Below, piece after piece: positions 1,991 through 8,684 of a stretch of DNA of 8,684 nt (position 1 is its first letter; each line of letters begins with the position of its first letter). The notes below the pieces were generated by a model, which was not told where the DNA came from, did not search any database, and saw only the letters and a program-made list of their open reading frames with translations. Source of the stretch: a virus. Lineage: Duplodnaviria > Heunggongvirae > Uroviricota > Caudoviricetes. The stretch lies in the IMG/VR virus record IMGVR_UViG_2909246061_000003, positions 1 to 8,684 of that record; one strand, given 5' to 3'. A program made the translations under genes and the position numbers.

Positions 1991-2152
1991 ATGACAAAAC
2001 GTCGTAAGAAATACCAGGAAAAAGAAGAGATTCGACACCCTGATTCACCTGAGGGATTAGTGGTAGCCGCAGCAAATAACAGGGCGTTCGCAGAACGCCT
2101 TGTTGGTGTTTACAGACTAGCCAAAGCAGGAGTGAAACATGGGCGTCGTTAA
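1991..2152 (+). CDS. Small basic ORF, 53 aa, using a lambda-O-like RBS and start context
   Basis: AGGAG at 1981-1985, then ATG at 1991. Product MTKRRKKYQEKEEIRHPDSPEGLVVAAANNRAFAERLVGVYRLAKAGVKHGRR. Overlaps the O-like start by 14 nt. Could be a real small gene or a by-product of a recombination junction. Confidence 0.3.
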   Translation: MTKRRKKYQEKEEIRHPDSPEGLVVAAANNRAFAERLVGVYRLAKAGVKHGRR

Positions 2153-2936
2153 GTTAGCTGATTACAGGCCTCAACTGGAGGTCGTGGAGCATCGCGTGGC
2201 AGATACCGAAGATGGTTTCATGCGCATTGCTAACGAGATTACCGACAGTCTGCTGATGGCTGATTTAACCGTCCGGCAGTTGAAGGTGATGCTCGCTATC
2301 ATGCGCAAGACATACGGATTCAATAAGCCGATGGATCGACTCACAAACACGCAGATAGCAGCCATGACAGGTATTCATCACACTCATGTTTGCGCTGCCA
2401 AGCGCCAGCTTATCGAGCGTAAATTCCTCATTGCTGATGGCGTGAAAATCGGAGTGAACAAGGTGGTTTCTCAGTGGATTAGCCAGGACAGCTTAACATT
2501 AGCTAAAACAGCTAATAAAACATTAGCCAAGTCGGCTAATGGGTATAAGCCAAGTCAGCTAAACACAAAAGACAATATACAAAAGACAATAAATACAAAT
2601 ACCCCCTTACCCCCTAACGGGGGCGGCGATGGGCAGGTTAAACCTGAACGTCGCAAGGCAGAACGAATCGACTACGAATCCTTCCTGAACGCCTACAACA
2701 CCGAAGTCGGTGACAGACTGCCACACGCTGTTGCGGTCAACGAGAAACGCAAACGCCGCCTGAAGAAAATCATCCCGCAACTGAAAACGCCAAACGTGGA
2801 CGGTTTCAGAGCGTATGTCAGGGCGTTTGTGCATCAGGCCAAGCCGTTTTACTTCGGAGACAACGACACGGGCTGGACGGCCGATTTTGATTACCTGCTG
2901 AGGGAAGACTCGTTAACGGGAGTTCGGGAAGCGTAG
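2139..2936 (+). CDS. Replication initiator, lambda O-like N-terminal domain, 265 aa
   Basis: AGGAG at 2128-2132, ATG at 2139, in-frame stop immediately upstream. N-terminal half is collinear with lambda O (RVAD.EDG...L...L..ADLT.RQ.KV.LAI.RKTYG.NKPMDR.T..Q). C-terminal half is not recognisably lambda O. Internal iteron-like repeats are listed separately. Confidence 0.8.
   Translation: MGVVKLADYRPQLEVVEHRVADTEDGFMRIANEITDSLLMADLTVRQLKVMLAIMRKTYGFNKPMDRLTNTQIAAMTGIHHTHVCAAKRQLIERKFLIADGVKIGVNKVVSQWISQDSLTLAKTANKTLAKSANGYKPSQLNTKDNIQKTINTNTPLPPNGGGDGQVKPERRKAERIDYESFLNAYNTEVGDRLPHAVAVNEKRKRRLKKIIPQLKTPNVDGFRAYVRAFVHQAKPFYFGDNDTGWTADFDYLLREDSLTGVREA
2477..2603 (+). repeat. Origin-like array inside the O-like gene: four iteron-like repeats followed by an AT-rich tract
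   Basis: Repeats of about 21-24 bp, each with internal dyad ATTAGC...GCTAAT: 2477-2497, 2497-2520, 2521-2544, 2545-2568. Then an A/T-rich tract to about 2603 (AAAAGACAATATACAAAAGACAATAAATACAAATAC). Same architecture as ori-lambda inside O. Confidence 0.5.
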
Positions 2937-2962
2937 CTAAATTTCATTCGCCAAAAAGCCCG

Positions 2963-3541
2963 ATGATGAGCGACTCACCACGGGCTACGGCTTCTGACTC
3001 TCTTTCCGGTACTGATGTGATGGCTGCTATGGGGATGGCGCAATCACAAGCCGGATTCGGTATGGCTGCATTCTGTGGTAAGCACGAACTCAGCCAGAAC
3101 GACAAACAAAAGGCTATCAACTATCTGATGCAATTTGCACACAAGGTATCGGGGAAATACCGTGGTGTGGCAAAGATCGAAGGAAATACTAAGGCAAAGG
3201 TACTGCAAGTGCTCGCAACATTCGCTTATGCGGATTATTGCCGTAGTGCCGCGACGCCGGGGGCAAGATGCAGAGATTGCCACGGTACAGGCCGTGTGGT
3301 TGATATAGCAAAAACAGAGCAGTGGGGGAGAGTTGTTGAGAAAGAGTGCGGAAGATGCAAAGGTGTCGGCTATTCAAGGATGCCAGCAAGCGCCGCATAT
3401 CGCGCTGTAACGATGCTAATTCCAAACCTCACCCAACCCACCTGGTCACGCACTGTTAAGCCGCTGTATGACGCTCTGGTGGTGCAATGCCACAAAGAAG
3501 AGTCAATCGCAGACAACATTTTGAACGCGGTCACACGTTAG
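2963..3541 (+). CDS. Q: Late antiterminator Q, lambda-type, read from the first in-frame ATG (192 aa); native start codon apparently lost
   Basis: Product has the Zn-binding CRDCHGTG...CGRCKGVG module and is collinear with lambda Q as I recall it. The frame is open upstream to 2891 and encodes ...VAKFHSPKSP before the Met-Met at 2963, matching lambda Q residues about 6-15, but no ATG/GTG/TTG or SD is present there. Only 26 bp separate it from the O-like stop. Confidence 0.75.
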   Translation: MMSDSPRATASDSLSGTDVMAAMGMAQSQAGFGMAAFCGKHELSQNDKQKAINYLMQFAHKVSGKYRGVAKIEGNTKAKVLQVLATFAYADYCRSAATPGARCRDCHGTGRVVDIAKTEQWGRVVEKECGRCKGVGYSRMPASAAYRAVTMLIPNLTQPTWSRTVKPLYDALVVQCHKEESIADNILNAVTR

Positions 3542-3583: not shown

Positions 3584-3612
3584 TTGACTTTTTGAATAAA
3601 GTTGGGTAAATT
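3584..3612 (+). promoter_or_regulatory. pR'-like late promoter (-35 TTGACT 3584-3589, 17-bp spacer, -10 TAAATT 3607-3612) with adjacent qut-like region
   Basis: Hexamers and spacing seen directly. The surrounding sequence closely resembles the lambda pR' region from memory, up to about 3640, where similarity ends. Confidence 0.6.
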
Positions 3613-3685: not shown

Positions 3686-3958
3686 AGCACGGCCTTTCTG
3701 AAAGCACATCAAACCAAATACCAGACAGACAATACCCTCACCTTATAGGGACACTTGCTTCAACAGGAGGGACGGTTAGGACCGCCATCCTATATGGGAC
3801 GACCGCCAATAGAACCACGGCCACGGTAATAGAACTCTTCAGAGATGGCACAGTCGCTGCCGGGCATACTTTTACGCTGAGAGATATTTCTTTTGGAGAC
3901 AGCAGGGCTCTAGGGGCTGATTTTGGAGGCTCCTTCGGGAATCTGTATAAGTTCTAAT

Positions 3959-3976
3959 CGGCCGCATCAGCGGCCG
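3959..3976. terminator. All-GC hairpin just past the gtrC stop, a possible operon-end or bidirectional terminator
   Basis: CGGCCGC (3959-3965), loop ATCA, GCGGCCG (3970-3976). A U-rich tract follows on the plus side only (TATCTCTTT). On the minus strand it lies 8 nt after the gtrC stop without a clean T-run. Confidence 0.35.
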
Positions 3977-3983
3977 TATCTCT

Positions 3984-5585
3984 TTACAGATAAGCGACGA
4001 AATAGCCGTCAATTTTCTTTATTTTAAGTTTGTCGCCATAGATGGATAGGGGCTTCTTGAGCCATGTATCGTCTGTGGCGACATATATCTCATTATTCCT
4101 TAGCGTACCCTTAGCCTTAATTTCGGCTATATATCTTTTGTTATTATCTATCGCTGCTTTGTCTGCTCTAGCAAAATACCCAAAATTAAGTTTCATTTTT
4201 TCTGAAGAAGCAAATTCAGCAAATGGGAGCCAATGTCTTAAGCTGAACTCATCGTAATCAGTGGTTATGATAGTGTCCTTCCCTTTGGAGATGACTTCCC
4301 ACTCTTTACTCAACATTTGAGAGCTGTATGGCTTACCAGTATATATCTCTCGAACGGCTTTGAAAAAGTTGCTTTCATCCGCCACTGATATTAATAGAAT
4401 AGGGAGCAAGACATAAGCAGAACTTTTCGAGGTTTTTGCTAAGTATGCCAAAACAATCAACATCAAGATCATCGTCACCGGCCAGAAGAACCGACCAGAA
4501 GAGCGAAAAACGCCACCAACCTTCATGAGAAAGTCATTCATTGGAATTTCAATGAGATTAAATCCATAAAAGTTAATTCGATAAGTTATAGAAACGGCAG
4601 CCAGAACTAAACAGAAGTACAATACAGGAGATTTTATAATTCTCCTGAAATCTATGGACTTTCTTAAAGAGGAGTCTATCAGCATAAACAAAAATAGCGT
4701 GATGATGCCTAATCCTAGATAATTTATACCCTCAAAGTTAGCCTGTTGACTCCCATGACTCAAGATAAGATGTGAGTATCTCTGGTCTCCTGGGTTGAAC
4801 CAGCCGGCAAGATCCATGTTAAGGAATCCGAATCCAGGGTATGGGTCAGAGCCTTTAATAACAAAGTATCCGGTAGCATACATTGCGAGAAATATTAACA
4901 CAGAGTAACACGCGAAAAAGAATGCCGATCTTTTTAAAGATAAACGGTTTGTGTTCAGTTTGTTTAAAATGTCAAATGCAAAAATTAAATACACCATTAT
5001 CAGCAAATATGCATGAATGGTGACTGAGAGAACTAAAATAGCAGCCCATCTTTTAAAGCAAAAAGACCTATTGATATAAAGGTAAAATCCAAAAAGAATT
5101 AGCCACTGAGCGCCTAATGCAAAGTGACCACCGGCACGATTTAAGAATATTGGTGCAATGCAGAAGAAGCATGAACCTATTGCAGAGAATATCTCATCCT
5201 TTGTTAACTTACGAAGAACCAAATACGCAGAAAACGTCATAAGCACAAAGCAAAGATACATCCAAAGCCCGTGATATTGAAATCTGGCGGGGAGAAAGTC
5301 GCTAAAAGGCTTGAATATGAAGGCCATAATTGGGATTGAGTCGGTGTAAACGATAGACCCACCTACACCCATCCCATAGTTATAATTTAGGCCAAGGGGC
5401 CACTGCAACAACGGAGTATTTCGGAAGAAATTCCATCCTGACCAGCTTTGACCAGGATCACCTATCATAAGCCATCCAACTCTTTTGAAGTCCAGCACAT
5501 TCACACCAACATACATAGCAAACATTGATGTCGTGAATATAAACATAAATAAGGACGCTAAAATCCTTTTTTGTGCCTTAGTCAT
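3984..5585 (-). CDS. Serotype-specific O-antigen glucosyltransferase, GtrC-type polytopic membrane protein, 533 aa
   Basis: Third gene of a gtrA-gtrB-gtr(type) operon. The ATG at 5585 overlaps the gtrB stop by 8 nt (ATGACTAA). N-terminal two-thirds has many hydrophobic segments; C-terminal hydrophilic domain of about 130 aa. Markedly AT-rich codon usage compared with neighbours. No close relative recognised from memory. Confidence 0.7.
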
Positions 5586-6501
5586 TGTGTTTATTCCTTA
5601 AGATGTAACGAGGCCTAGCCTTGACTTCAATATATATTCTTCCGATATATTCACCAAGAACGCCAATGCCGATAAGTTGAATCCCGCCCAAGAACAGGAT
5701 TGAAACAAGGAGTGAAGGATATCCTCTCACGGCATTTCCAAATGCAATAGTATCGATGATCATCCAGGCTCCGTAGATAAATGCAAGCCCAGCGACTAGT
5801 AATCCAATATAAGTCCACATACGTAGAGGGAATGTAGAAAAGCTAGTAATCCCTTCTAGAGCTAAATTCCAAAGCTTCCAGCCATTAAACTTTGTGCAAC
5901 CAGCGACTCGCTCAGCTCTGGCGTATTCTACTACATCTGTTTTCCCGCCAACCCAAGACAAAACGCCCTTCATGAACAAGTTTCTTTCTGGCATTAGTTT
6001 GATATTTTCTACCACTTCTCGTGACATTAAACGGAAGTCACCGACGTTCTCTTCAATTTTGGGATTGCTGATTTTATTGTGTAGCTTATAGAACCACTCA
6101 GCTGATTTTCGCTTTAAACGACCGTCAGTAGACCTGTCTGTACGTTTGGCCAGAACCATATCCGCCCCAGCCTGCCACTTCTCAATTAGGTGGGGGATTA
6201 CTTCAATTGGGTCCTGCAGATCTACATCAATCGGAATGACCGCGTCGCCTGTAGCTTGGTCAAGGCCAGCAAACAAAGCCGGTTCCTTTCCGAAGTTACG
6301 CGTGAAGGAGAGAGGAACTACGAGTGGGTCAGCAATGGCAAGCGCGTTAATAATTGATTCTGTAGCGTCTTTGCTACCGTCGTTAATGAAGACTATTTCG
6401 ACTTCATGCTGCTGAAGCCCTTCAAATTCCCGCACGGTTTTATAGAAGATTGGAATTGCTTCCTCTTCATTAAACACAGGAACGACCAGAGAAATTTTCA
6501 T
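5578..6501 (-). CDS. gtrB: Bactoprenol glucosyltransferase GtrB (GT2 family), 307 aa
   Basis: Near-collinear with Shigella/Salmonella phage GtrB from memory ([23 protein letters not shown]...FINDGSKD...DVDLQDP...). ATG at 6501 overlaps the gtrA stop (ATGA). Confidence 0.9.
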
Positions 6502-6860
6502 TTCACATCCCTAAAGACAATGAACTTTGAATAAATAAACCCGCACACCAGACTGATGGCGGAGAACAGAATTAAGGTGATGATTGGTGCCAGACCAGAT
6601 TTATCCGCCGCCCAACCCACAGCTGCGCTAAGCGTCCCCATAAAGCCGACGTAAAGCATGTATCGCATGGTTGTTGTGGATGACTTAAACGTGAATCTGG
6701 CATTTGCGAAGAAGCTAAATGACACAGCCACAACGAACCCGGCAAAGTTGCCAAGGGCCTGTCCTGTATGGAATGCATAGATGCAAATTGCGAACACTAC
6801 CCAGTGAATGAGCGTGTTAATGACACCTATCGATGTGTACTTGGCGAATAACTTTAACAT
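6498..6860 (-). CDS. gtrA: Bactoprenol-linked glucose translocase (flippase) GtrA, 120 aa
   Basis: From the internal ATG at 6860 the product [23 protein letters not shown]... matches GtrA at its usual 120-aa length. The ORF-track start at 6923 is a GTG extension and is not used. Confidence 0.85.
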
Positions 6861-6936
6861 TATAGAAATCAGTGAATTCGGAAAGGTCTGAAGTGTAGCA
6901 CCACAAACGCTATTGATCGACACCGCCGATCAGTAC

Positions 6937-6950
6937 TACTGTATTAATAT
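6937..6950. promoter_or_regulatory. Left half of an interrupted LexA (SOS) box: TACTGT plus the ATTAATAT centre
   Basis: Joining 6937-6950 to 8275-8280 (removing the IS and one copy of the duplication) gives TACTGTATTAATATACAGTA, i.e. CTGT-N8-ACAG with an AT-rich centre, close to the TACTG(TA)5CAGTA consensus. Confidence 0.6.
6943..6950. repeat. Target-site duplication ATTAATAT, left copy
   Basis: Identical 8-mer directly abuts both IS termini (6943-6950 and 8267-8274). Confidence 0.75.
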
Positions 6951-8266
6951 GGGTCTTCCCTTGTTGTGGTGGCTGAAGGCATGATAATGGTGTATTTAAT
7001 CGCCAGAGGTCACCGCCATGGACGAAAAGTCCCTCTACGCTCATATTCTCAACCTGTCCGATCCGTGGCAGGTAAAGTCCCTTTCTCTCGATGAAAATGC
7101 CGGTTCTGTTACTGTCACTATTGAGATCGCTGAAAACACCCGGCTAGCCTGTCCGGCCTGCGGTAAATCCTGTTCTGTTCACGATCACCGTCATCGTAAA
7201 TGGCGCCATCTTGATACCTGCCAGTTCACCACTATTGTTGAAGCCGATGTTCCACGAATTATGTGTCCGGAGCATGGCTGTCAGACGTTGCCTGTTCCGT
7301 GGGCTGGCCCCGGAAGCCGGTATACGTTGCTGTTCGAATTGTTCGTTCTCTCATGGCTGAAAATCAGCACCGTTGATGCTGTCAGGAAGCAACTTAAGCT
7401 CAGCTGGAATGCGGTTGACGGCATTATGACCCGGGCAGTTAAGCGAGGTCTTGCCCGGATAAAAAAGCCATTATCCGCCCGTCATATGAATGTGGATGAG
7501 GTCGCCTTTAAAAAAGGACATCGTTACATAACGGTGATCTCCGATCGCGATGGTCGGGCGCTGGCCTTAACGGATGATCGCGGCACAGAGAGTCTTGCCG
7601 GCTATCTTCGCACACTCACTGATGGGCAGTTGCTGGCTATCAAAACGCTCTCAATGGACATGAACGCGGGCTATATAAGAGCAGCGCGCATCCACTTACC
7701 CAGCGCGGTTGAGAAAATCGCCTTTGACCGCTTCCATGTGGCGAAGCAACTGGGCGAGGTAGTTGATAAAACCCGTCAGAATGAACATCCGCACCTCCCT
7801 GTTGAAAGCCGACGCCAGGCAAAAGGAACCCGCTTCCTGTGGCAGTACAGTGATAAGTGGATGACTGAATCCCGGCAGGAAAAGCTGATGTGGCTGCGTG
7901 CACAGATGAAGCTGACGAGCCAGTGCTGGGCGCTGAAAGAGCTGGCAAAGGATATCTGGAACAGGCCATGGAGCGAGGAAAGGCGGAGTGACTGGCAGAG
8001 ATGGCTGGCGCTGGCGGCTAACAGTGACGTTCCCATGATGAAAAATGCTGCGAAAACGATAGGAAAAAGGCTGTACGGGATCCTGAATGCGATGCGACAC
8101 AGTGTCTCAAACGGAAATGCGGAGGCACTTAACAGCAAGATAAGGTTGCTGAGAATAAAAGCCAGGGGATACCGAAACCGGGAGCGCTTTAAACTGGGAG
8201 TGATGTTCCACTACGGTAAGCTGAATATGGAGTTCTGAGCCTTCCCACCATGATCGGGGAAGACCC
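6951..8266 (+). mobile_element. ISL3-family insertion sequence, about 1.3 kb, with imperfect terminal inverted repeats
   Basis: Left end GGGTCTTCCC...GGTGG..GAAGGC (from 6951) mirrors the reverse complement of the right end (...GCCTTCCCACC...GGGGAAGACCC ending at 8266). Contains a single transposase ORF and is flanked by an 8-bp direct repeat. Confidence 0.75.
7018..8238 (+). CDS. ISL3-family transposase, 406 aa
   Basis: ATG at 7018. N-terminal Cys/His zinc-ribbon (CPACG...C..H.H) followed by a long catalytic region, typical of ISL3-type transposases from memory. The three antisense ORFs within it are taken as artefacts. Confidence 0.85.
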   Translation: MDEKSLYAHILNLSDPWQVKSLSLDENAGSVTVTIEIAENTRLACPACGKSCSVHDHRHRKWRHLDTCQFTTIVEADVPRIMCPEHGCQTLPVPWAGPGSRYTLLFELFVLSWLKISTVDAVRKQLKLSWNAVDGIMTRAVKRGLARIKKPLSARHMNVDEVAFKKGHRYITVISDRDGRALALTDDRGTESLAGYLRTLTDGQLLAIKTLSMDMNAGYIRAARIHLPSAVEKIAFDRFHVAKQLGEVVDKTRQNEHPHLPVESRRQAKGTRFLWQYSDKWMTESRQEKLMWLRAQMKLTSQCWALKELAKDIWNRPWSEERRSDWQRWLALAANSDVPMMKNAAKTIGKRLYGILNAMRHSVSNGNAEALNSKIRLLRIKARGYRNRERFKLGVMFHYGKLNMEF

Positions 8267-8274
8267 ATTAATAT
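8267..8274. repeat. Target-site duplication ATTAATAT, right copy
   Basis: See left copy. Confidence 0.75.
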
Positions 8275-8280
8275 ACAGTA
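8267..8280. promoter_or_regulatory. Right half of the interrupted LexA box: ATTAATAT centre plus ACAGTA
   Basis: See left half. Sits about 18 nt upstream of the RBS/ATG of the UmuD'-like gene; TAATAT within it could serve as a -10. Confidence 0.6.
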
Positions 8281-8297: not shown

Positions 8298-8684
8298 ATG
8301 GGATTCCCGAGTCCGGCTCAAGACTATGTTGAAGAGCGCGTATTGCTCGACAAGCGCATCATAAGCAGACCAGCGGCCACGTATTTCATGAGAGCGGGTG
8401 CAACGCATCACCGCGAAGGCATCCTGAATGGTGCTCTTCTGGTAGTGGATGCATCGCTATCACCATGTGACGGCTCGTTGCTGGTTTGCAGAATGGAAGG
8501 TGAGCTGAGGATTAAGCGATATCGCAAATCACCAAAGCCTCACCTGGAGGATTTGCAGACGGGAAGGCGTGAGGAGATACCGGCACACGATGACGGCACG
8601 AGTCCGGATGCGATATTTGGTGTGATCACCTACATCATAAACGATGCACGCTCTGGCGAGTTTGATGATTGTCTGATTATGTGA
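8298..8684 (+). CDS. UmuD'-like protein (peptidase S24 fold, natively lacking the N-terminal arm; phage P1 HumD-like), 128 aa
   Basis: GGAGGTGA RBS, ATG at 8298, in-frame stop at 8292-8294. Product begins MGFPSPAQDY, which corresponds to the GFPSPA segment immediately after the RecA-mediated cleavage site of UmuD/MucA. The rest is collinear with UmuD/MucA from memory, including the conserved Lys (RIKRY), but the GDSM Ser motif is replaced by GATHH. TGA ends exactly at the window edge. Confidence 0.75.
   Translation: MGFPSPAQDYVEERVLLDKRIISRPAATYFMRAGATHHREGILNGALLVVDASLSPCDGSLLVCRMEGELRIKRYRKSPKPHLEDLQTGRREEIPAHDDGTSPDAIFGVITYIINDARSGEFDDCLIM

Follow-up and report, generated by a model that had tools for sequence, protein, structure and literature searches.

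A prophage gtr operon of O88-type Escherichia coli with a DUF6311 protein as its predicted type-specific transferase

Introduction

The closest described relatives of the locus studied here are the serotype-converting gtr cassettes of temperate phages. In Shigella flexneri the gtrA-gtrB-gtrI/II/IV/V/X cassettes (phages SfI, SfII, SfIV, SfV and SfX) consist of three tightly coupled genes that lie at the end of the phage genome by the tail or tailspike genes, with int as the neighbour of gtrA, in hosts whose O-antigen has the S. flexneri Y backbone. The Salmonella systems (GtrC families I-X, including the gtr genes of P22) follow the same operon logic. The third genes of such operons encode polytopic GT-C transferases, are AT-rich and are poorly conserved between types. 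Other three-component systems with a GT-C enzyme are ArnC/ArnT, the Citrobacter youngae ORF15/ORF14/ORF12 system (GT136) and mycobacterial AftA, in which the donor carries Ara4N or a pentofuranose.

The regulation of the phase-variable gtr operons has been described in some detail. Upstream of their promoters are two pairs of GATC sites, four in all, together with three OxyR half-sites (PMC2909390, PMC3688519). Transcription of the P22 operon begins 25 bp upstream of gtrA (PMC2909390), its -35 element encompasses GATC-4 (PMC3688519), and a P22 promoter that retains the OxyR(BC) site only is locked at a low level, i.e. 9 Miller units as compared to 349 for the bare promoter (PMC2909390).

Here we analyse a prophage-derived stretch of 8,684 nucleotides (the window), for which the original prediction was a gtr operon whose third gene encodes an uncharacterised type-specific glucosyltransferase.

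Results

Organisation and composition of the operon

The three genes are found on the minus strand of the window, where they had been predicted. gtrA (6498-6860, ATG at 6860) encodes a small membrane protein of the GtrA family with 120 amino acids; its open reading frame, when called mechanically, extends further, to a GTG at 6923. gtrB (5578-6501, 307 amino acids) encodes a GT2 bactoprenol (undecaprenyl-phosphate) glucosyltransferase, and the third gene (3984-5585, a gtrC by position, provisionally named gtrO88) encodes a protein of 533 amino acids with a DUF6311 and a DUF6311_C domain. Both predicted overlaps are visible in the junction sequences, i.e. an ATGA overlap between gtrA and gtrB (...GTGAAATGAAAATT) and an overlap of 8 nt, ATGACTAA, between gtrB and the third gene (...AATGACTAAGG); all three genes are translationally coupled. 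No frameshift or truncation was found in the third gene, which has no internal stop codon over 3984-5585. Each of the three reading frames is intact, and three other complete genomes carry all of them with 100% identity.

The GC content of the third gene is 38.8%, as compared to 44.0% for gtrB, 46.0% for gtrA and 46.2% for the whole window, and the lowest-GC stretch of 1600 bp in the window begins at 4001, within this gene. The suggestion that the third gene is more AT-rich than anything else in the window is therefore correct for gene-sized stretches, but not for short ones, since the 300 bp at 901-1200 (36% GC) are about equally AT-rich. This composition is normal for type-specific gtr genes and in fact milder than usual, as the GC content of gtrI, gtrII, gtrIV, gtrV and the P22-type gtrC is between 31.8 and 33.4%.

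GtrA matches Pfam PF04138 (E = 1.7e-14) and the GtrA-like family of PHROGs (E = 1.6e-66), and BLASTP finds it 83% identical to GtrA of SfV. GtrB matches PF00535 (E = 2.7e-30) and the GtrB family of PHROGs (E = 1.7e-180), and is 88% identical to GtrB of SfII. The two proteins are thus conserved, as predicted, and closely orthologous to their counterparts in Shigella and Salmonella phages. GtrA is the proposed flippase of undecaprenyl-phosphate-glucose (Und-P-glucose), and we infer that glucose is the donated sugar because GtrB is so similar to its Shigella counterpart.

The third protein

The third protein (RefSeq WP_072778257.1) is a strong member of the Pfam family DUF6311 (PF19830, E = 5.9e-64), membership being defined as a score over the Pfam gathering threshold across the full domain: the score is 217.2 bits with a cut-off of 27, and residues 18-297 cover positions 13-292 of the 303 in the profile. 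The C-terminal domain DUF6311_C (PF25853) is precomputed for an identical protein (P0001), and none of the NCBIfam models matches. The sequence had been regarded as unrecognised, which is right in the sense that none of the characterised Gtr types compared matched it, but the protein itself can be classified.

BLASTP comparison with GtrI, GtrII, GtrIV, GtrV and the P22-type GtrC gave nothing better than E = 0.75, and the hhalign profile-sequence probability was below 1% for GtrI, GtrII, GtrIV and GtrV. The Pfam assignments differ as well: the other types belong to Glucos_trans_II, show weak matches to PMT_2 or DUF2142, or have no family. In other words, high identity to a characterised type was not seen in any of these comparisons. 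Tblastn against 50,697 phage records produced no match at E <= 1e-3, and neither PHROGs (no family) nor the BFVD structures (no match) contained a counterpart. GtrX, GtrIc, Salmonella families II-X and E. coli YfdI were compared via these phage collections only, with no match; the negative results exclude every Gtr type present in the collections, but not types that are exclusively chromosomal. No description of this type was found in the literature searched on E. coli gtr operons and serotype conversion. On these comparisons the third protein represents a putative new Gtr type, so far uncharacterised, within a kind of system that is already known. We note that the third gene has so far been seen in prophages only and is absent from the sequenced phage isolates searched.

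A confident AlphaFold model was available for the third protein, and its structural matches are exclusively glycosyltransferases of the GT-C fold. In the structural alignments the protein shares 9-12% identity with solved GT-C enzymes; no PDB entry was matched meaningfully by sequence, and only the fold comparison was successful. The high-confidence prediction is thus a GT-C fold, as would be expected if the protein is a Gtr type-specific enzyme. As for the membrane topology, a positively charged N-terminus is followed by the first transmembrane helix (residues 8-26) and a loop of 79 residues, which the positive-inside rule places in the periplasm. This loop contains two invariant aspartates, D43 and D82, the first of which is a putative catalytic base. 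The C-terminal alpha/beta domain, roughly 115 residues long, is probably periplasmic. Together with the adjacent GtrA and GtrB orthologues and the lack of similarity to the Gtr types compared, the predicted fold bears out the original proposal of an uncharacterised type-specific transferase.

Prophage context

The operon is carried by a lambdoid prophage that occupies the sbcB-dacD site in its E. coli host and has decayed: the cI/cro, P/nin and late regions have been lost. Beyond the 3' end of the third gene, a fragment of 214 bp on the plus strand (3744-3957) corresponds to the last 70 codons and the stop of a tailspike gene. It is 100% identical to L001 19761-19974, i.e. the end of the gene for the 750-aa tailspike in strain 1506, and it marks the right-hand edge of the deletion that took out the late region. 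The intact prophage of strain 1506 has the order tailspike, gtrC, gtrB, gtrA, humD, followed by the host gene dacD, and in strain A30 the order is tailspike, gtrCBA, humD, int, tRNA-Arg. The observation that the operon sits where late genes would be expected is therefore accurate as to position, but this is an artefact of the deletion, and the canonical place, as seen in strain 1506, is after the tailspike gene. The Q-adjacent position was also considered as an unusual phage architecture; this was rejected, the deletion junction being common to strain PSS-10.

The tailspike remnant and the third gene are convergent, and a GC-rich hairpin (CGGCCGC-ATCA-GCGGCCG, 3959-3976) separates them. The hairpin is terminator-like on the plus strand and has no T-run on the minus strand; it could conceivably serve as the gtr terminator.

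On the other side of the operon, a 1316-bp insertion sequence of the ISL3 family (6951-8266, plus strand; transposase at 7018-8238) lies in the gtrA-humD intergenic region, between the gtr promoter and humD and 90 bp upstream of gtrA. Its transposase matches the ISL3 models of Pfam and NCBIfam, and 100% identical copies elsewhere are annotated as ISKox3. Strains PSS-10, 1506 and TUM12357 lack the element at loci that are identical in all other respects. The element is flanked by an 8-bp target-site duplication, ATTAATAT (left copy 6943-6950, right copy 8267-8274), located by the breaks in the alignment with L003, and the same 8-mer is the N8 spacer of a LexA box, TACTGT-ATTAATAT-ACAGTA.

Promoter region

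A gtr promoter is predicted on the minus strand at 6885-6931, with a -10 element TACACT (6897-6892), a spacer of 17 nt and a -35 element TCGATC (6920-6915). The assignment rests on homology and was made by visual comparison with the gtr regulatory region of phage SPN9CC, which is P22-like; a generic promoter scan missed it because the hexamers match the consensus poorly. The P22-type region shares this promoter core and also a pair of GATC sites with a spacing of 9 nt, found here at 6915-6918 and 6928-6931 and homologous to GATC-4 and GATC-3 of P22, respectively. GATC-1, GATC-2 and the OxyR(A) half-site of P22 are absent, and the LexA box of the divergent humD is found in their place; in the relatives without the IS element, this box and the start of humD occupy the distal regulatory region. 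Phase variation of the full Dam/OxyR kind was rejected on these grounds, as only the proximal GATC pair is present upstream of gtrA.

Distribution and selection

Among 5,426 complete E. coli genomes, four carry the third gene and 29 have an O88-type wzx/wzy region; all four carriers are among the 29, and the other 25, including NCTC9088, are without the gene. The gene occupies two different prophage sites, the copy of strain A30 being at the argW/yfdC site. The association with O88 should be read as two independent acquisitions only, since three of the carriers belong to a single lineage. Nevertheless, because all carriers are O88-type and the gene is found at two prophage sites, the most likely acceptor is the O88-type O-antigen.

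Nucleotide identity between the window and A30 is highest in the third gene (96.4%), followed by gtrB (91.3%) and gtrA (74.7%). The pN/pS of the third gene in this comparison is 0.12, a value that points to purifying selection on its lineage. Moreover, the gtr operon is 100% identical across three copies of the prophage that have decayed differently and independently.

The DUF6311 family

DUF6311 comprises about 4,300 clusters at 50% identity, distributed over many bacterial phyla with one match in an archaeal metagenome-assembled genome (MAG). The third protein is approximately 30-39% identical to members from Proteobacteria, Acidobacteriota, Bacillota, Patescibacteria and the archaeal MAG; the enterobacterial prophage clade forms a 50%-identity cluster of its own, and the nearest other representative is 39% identical. 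Many members have about 700 amino acids as compared to the 533 of the third protein, and in some (P0037, P0054) a GtrA domain is fused to DUF6311. DUF6311 genes of other phyla are often neighbours of GtrB- and GtrA-like genes: a full-length GtrB-like gene was found within 5 kb at 22 of 77 DUF6311 loci from different species, and at least 13 of these 22 also have a GtrA-like gene. Many of the 77 are without a GtrB neighbour at this distance, and the family may also use other sugars, or donors made elsewhere in the genome. E. coli itself has a second DUF6311 type, 33% identical, in a P22-like prophage with the order int-gtrA-gtrB-DUF6311-tailspike. The literature searched contained no mention of DUF6311, PF19830, PF25853 or WP_072778257.

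Discussion

The locus has the general features of a gtr operon: GtrA comes first and GtrB second, the AT-rich third gene encodes a protein with a predicted polytopic GT-C fold, and the operon type is found in prophages, by the tailspike gene and the attachment end. Gene order, tight coupling, the AT-rich third gene and the terminal location in a temperate phage genome are shared with the S. flexneri cassettes. The differences are that the third protein belongs to another Pfam family and has an extra C-terminal alpha/beta domain, that the host O-antigen is O88-type, and that gtrA is next to humD and not to int. With the Salmonella systems the locus shares the operon logic, although the third protein is unrelated to the P22-type (family I) GtrC. 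It likewise has no sequence-level relation to the ArnC/ArnT, GT136 and AftA systems, and its donor is presumably Und-P-glucose and not one of theirs.

We consider it likely that this is an intact, functional-looking three-component operon for periplasmic O-antigen glucosylation, most probably with an O88-type acceptor. GtrB would transfer glucose from UDP-glucose to undecaprenyl-phosphate at the cytoplasmic face of the inner membrane, GtrA would bring the Und-P-glucose to the periplasmic face, and the 533-aa protein would pass the glucose on to one particular sugar within the O-antigen repeat. The linkage is expected to be alpha, because GT-C enzymes normally invert beta-linked polyprenyl-phosphate sugars. 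Glucosylation of this kind would alter the serological epitope and block the tailspike of the cognate phage, i.e. it would cause superinfection exclusion.

Whether the operon is active in the window strain is a separate matter. With ISKox3 so close to gtrA its expression there is uncertain, and since only the proximal GATC pair is present and the OxyR(BC)-only construct of P22 is locked low (PMC2909390), the operon may be poorly expressed. It could be an intact but silent relic in a heavily deleted prophage, with no present O-antigen phenotype, if the insertion and the lack of an activating OxyR(AB) site keep the promoter weak or repressed; the LexA box replaces the distal GATC pair even in the IS-free relatives. 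We nevertheless regard it as rather unlikely. The -35, the -10 and the predicted start are untouched and at least 31 bp from the end of the IS element, the reading frames are intact and identical to those of the other genomes, the low pN/pS indicates selection on the lineage, and all three differently decayed prophages have retained the operon.

The DUF6311 enzyme might also use Und-P-glucose on an acceptor other than the O-antigen, such as enterobacterial common antigen, the LPS core, colanic acid or a periplasmic protein. The acceptors of GT-C enzymes are indeed very diverse (lipid A for ArnT, proteins for Pmt and PglB, arabinogalactan for AftA). In Pseudomonas oryzihabitans, homologues occur outside a gtr operon, in a polysaccharide locus that also encodes GT4 enzymes, an MBOAT protein and an ABC transporter, and GtrC families II and IV of Salmonella gave no O-antigen shift (PMC3688519). 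On the other hand, in each of two different prophages the third gene directly adjoins a tailspike gene of the O-antigen type, and it occurs in O88-type hosts only, although all E. coli make common antigen and core, which renders such an acceptor improbable. Finally, as the fold comes from a predicted structure with very low identity to solved enzymes, the third protein could in principle have a different role in the membrane, e.g. as a polymerase, ligase or transporter, and be co-transcribed with gtrA and gtrB by chance; we give this reading hardly any weight.

The glucosylation of an O88-type acceptor, if correct, implies a glucosylated form of the O88 O-antigen, so far undescribed, which bears on serotyping, on the design of O-antigen vaccines and on phage therapy; it would also bear on phage host range through tailspike recognition and superinfection exclusion. 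The general view of how gtr systems work is unchanged, the type-specific enzymes being already known as extremely diverse. With somewhat less confidence, we lean towards a broader reading in which the DUF6311 proteins as a whole are periplasmic GT-C glycosyltransferases that depend on polyprenyl-phosphate sugars and decorate surface glycans, a family so far unrecognised as such, with the O88 prophage enzyme as the member easiest to characterise. If so, this enzyme might become the founder of a new CAZy GT family and mark out a new glucosylated subtype of O88, and a large domain of unknown function would gain a concrete, testable function through a tractable E. coli operon whose other two components, GtrA and GtrB, are already understood.

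Organization of the gtr operon

The three genes lie on the minus strand, namely gtrA (6498-6860, 120 aa), gtrB (5578-6501, 307 aa) and the third gene (3984-5585, 533 aa). The ATGA overlap between gtrA and gtrB and the 8-nt overlap between gtrB and the third gene (ATGACTAA) were found as described in the original prediction. The AT-richness of the third gene was also borne out: its GC content is 38.8%, as compared to 44.0% for gtrB, 46.0% for gtrA and 46.2% for the window, and of all 1600-bp segments of the window, the one that coincides with it is the lowest in GC.

GtrA and GtrB match the Pfam families GtrA_DPMS_TM and Glycos_transf_2, respectively, as well as the O-antigen-conversion families of PHROGs (E = 1.6e-66 for GtrA, 1.7e-180 for GtrB). 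GtrA is 83% identical to its SfV counterpart in Shigella phages and GtrB is 88% identical to that of SfII. Given the latter value, GtrB is very likely an Und-P-glucose synthase, so that the sugar transferred by the system would, by orthology, very likely be glucose.

The third protein is a DUF6311 protein

The third protein matches the Pfam family DUF6311 (E = 5.9e-64), and the C-terminal domain PF25853 (DUF6311_C) is present in the database entry identical to it; the RefSeq name is 'DUF6311 domain-containing protein' (WP_072778257.1). In a BLASTP comparison with GtrI, GtrII, GtrIV and GtrV of Shigella phages and with the P22-type GtrC the best E value was only 0.75, and a profile of 43 DUF6311 sequences gave probabilities below 1% with all of GtrI, GtrII, GtrIV and GtrV. 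These enzymes, including the P22-type GtrC, belong to Pfam families other than DUF6311, or to none. The BLASTP, profile and Pfam comparisons rule out that the third protein is one of these characterised types, and they support the earlier reading of the locus as a gtr operon with an uncharacterised type-specific enzyme, here from a sequence family different from those of the five types compared. No tblastn match was found among 50,697 phage records, and the protein has no PHROGs family, no NCBIfam model, no sequence relative in the PDB and, for its predicted structure, no significant structural relative in BFVD. No mention of DUF6311, PF19830, PF25853 or WP_072778257.1 was found in the literature searched.

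From the 43-sequence alignment AlphaFold2 gave a high-confidence model (mean pLDDT 89, pTM 0.90). The positively charged N terminus (MTKAQKR) is followed by TM1 (residues 8-26) and by a 79-residue loop, which is periplasmic according to the positive-inside rule and which contains both D43 and D82, residues that are invariant in DUF6311. Beyond the loop there are about 10 more hydrophobic helices, followed by some 115 residues that form an alpha/beta domain. This predicted topology is what one would expect of a GT-C enzyme.

Association with O88-type O-antigen

The third gene is carried by 4 of the 5,426 complete E. coli genomes. It is 100% identical in strains 1506, PSS-10 and TUM12357, and the operon of strain A30 is 92% identical. 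An O88-type wzx/wzy region, in which PGAP labels an 'O88 family O-antigen flippase', occurs in 29 of the 5,426 genomes, and these include all four carriers. The chance of this would be ~7e-10 if the four were independent; since three of the carriers belong to a single lineage, whose O88 cluster is a variant, the gene was acquired independently only twice, and the chance is then roughly (29/5426)^2, ~3e-5.

The variant cluster (locus L091, 10818-14477) is common to 1506, PSS-10, TUM12357 and strain 582, the last of which lacks the third gene. It is only ~94.6% identical to the cluster of 25 other O88-type genomes, NCTC9088 included, and the wzy of the variant-cluster strains is not recognised by PGAP as 'O88 family polymerase'. 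These strains may make a variant O88-like O-antigen.

In A30 the operon resides in another prophage, one located at argW/yfdC, and adjoins a tailspike with 74% identity to the strain 1506 tailspike. Between the window (3984-6860) and A30 (locus L002, 15001-17877) the nucleotide identity is 96.4% in the third gene, 91.3% in gtrB and 74.7% in gtrA. The third gene, with 96.8% amino acid identity and a pN/pS of 0.12, is thus the most conserved module of the operon and is under purifying selection. This steep gradient of divergence points to modular recombination in which the specificity gene travels with the O88 host type, and we infer that the acceptor of the third enzyme is the O88-type O-antigen.

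DUF6311 in other genomes

DUF6311 comprises 4,343 cluster representatives (50% identity, E <= 1e-3), and the closest one beyond the third protein's own 50% cluster is only 39% identical to it. Close relatives (86% identical) are carried by Lelliottia and Huaxiibacter, with gtrA and gtrB immediately upstream in Huaxiibacter. Scanning one genome per species gave at least 545 DUF6311 loci, 77 of which were examined. A full-length GtrB-like gene (E < 1e-60) lies within 5 kb of DUF6311 in 22 of the 77, accompanied by a GtrA-like gene in at least 13 of these 22, and tandem DUF6311 paralogues are present at about 14 of the 77; all are lower bounds because many contigs are short. In some proteins (P0037, P0054) a GtrA domain is fused to DUF6311, yet the homologues of Pseudomonas oryzihabitans are within a polysaccharide locus without gtrAB. 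DUF6311 as a whole therefore probably represents a broad group of GT-C transferases acting in the periplasm, with gtr operons as one context among others.

Two to four tandem paralogues are found in many environmental genomes (loci L015, L023, L035, L051 and L064 among them), sometimes together with a single GtrB-like gene. The tandem arrangement suggests several acceptor specificities fed by one lipid-linked donor.

Another DUF6311 protein of E. coli, P0104 (552 aa), is 33% identical to the third protein. Its gene is the third of a gtr operon in a P22-like prophage at the yfdC/argW site (locus L012, 4726-9892), where the gene order is int-gtrA-gtrB-DUF6311-tailspike and the adjoining tailspike is of the P22 type. 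DUF6311 enzymes thus recur among the Gtr type-specific enzymes of E. coli, as a class that is not annotated as such.

Position of the operon and deletions in the prophage

The window is E. coli DNA, and its closest relative among complete genomes is strain PSS-10, which covers 85% of it at 100% identity; the part absent from PSS-10 is an insertion sequence. Strain 1506 has the same prophage in intact form, in the order terminase, head and tail genes, 750-aa tailspike, third gene, gtrB, gtrA, humD and host dacD, i.e. with the operon after the tailspike, as is canonical for gtr. Of this tailspike gene the window retains the final 214 bp (70 codons) at 3744-3957, preceded by the Q antiterminator gene (2963-3541) and a promoter-like site (3584-3612) read as pR'-like. 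The deletion junction (window ~3733-3744; PSS-10 locus L003, 19300-19580; strain 1506 locus L001, 19761) brings the tailspike end into contact with the sequence that follows Q. The whole late region, lysis and structural genes alike, has therefore been deleted. The junction is also present in PSS-10, so this deletion is older than the IS insertion. The TUM12357 prophage has another set of deletions, and all three prophages have kept the gtr operon at 100% identity.

The cI/cro/N region is absent from the prophages of both the window strain and PSS-10. Relative to PSS-10 (L003, 13529-17120), the window has a further deletion of ~3.6 kb at 1524-1528 that removes early-left genes from the DUF550 gene through recT; as a result, a 138-aa minus-strand ORF (1108-1524) with a partial dATP/dGTP pyrophosphohydrolase domain abuts the cII region. 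At 2139-3541 the replication gene O (265 aa) is followed almost at once by Q. In related lambdoid prophages the two are ~4.5 kb apart, with the nin region and a gene for a replicative helicase in between; the near-contact of O and Q is thus a further internal deletion.

The predicted gtr promoter region and ISKox3

Homology to the P22-type gtr regulatory region predicts a -35 element (TCGATC, 6920-6915) and a -10 element (TACACT, 6897-6892) separated by 17 nt; in P22, the gtr transcript begins 25 bp before gtrA (PMC2909390). Two GATC sites separated by 9 nt, at 6915-6918 and 6928-6931, are the counterparts of GATC-4 and GATC-3 of P22, respectively. Neither the distal GATC pair nor the OxyR(A) half-site is present, also in IS-free relatives, and where they would lie there is instead a LexA box, TACTGT-ATTAATAT-ACAGTA, of the divergent HumD/UmuD-like gene humD (8298-8684). 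The Dam/OxyR phase-variation signature, as defined in PMC3688519, was found neither in the window nor in the IS-free relatives. The bare P22 gtr promoter is active (349 Miller units), and with only OxyR(BC) it is repressed (9 Miller units) (PMC2909390).

ISKox3 (6951-8266, 1316 bp) interrupts the LexA box exactly at its 8-bp spacer, ATTAATAT, which is duplicated as the target site of the element. The otherwise perfect box is split into halves at 6937-6950 and 8267-8280, so humD has probably lost the connection to its SOS-regulated promoter. On the gtr side, the insertion point is 90 bp away from the gtrA ATG, upstream of it, and 31 bp past the -35, which leaves the predicted core promoter intact.

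Significance

Salmonella alone has ten type-specific Gtr families with very low mutual sequence identity (PMC3688519). The known enzymes of this type are already highly diverse, and another family is no surprise to the specialist. The analysis proposes for DUF6311 a specific function that can be tested, and it predicts a glucosylated O88 variant.
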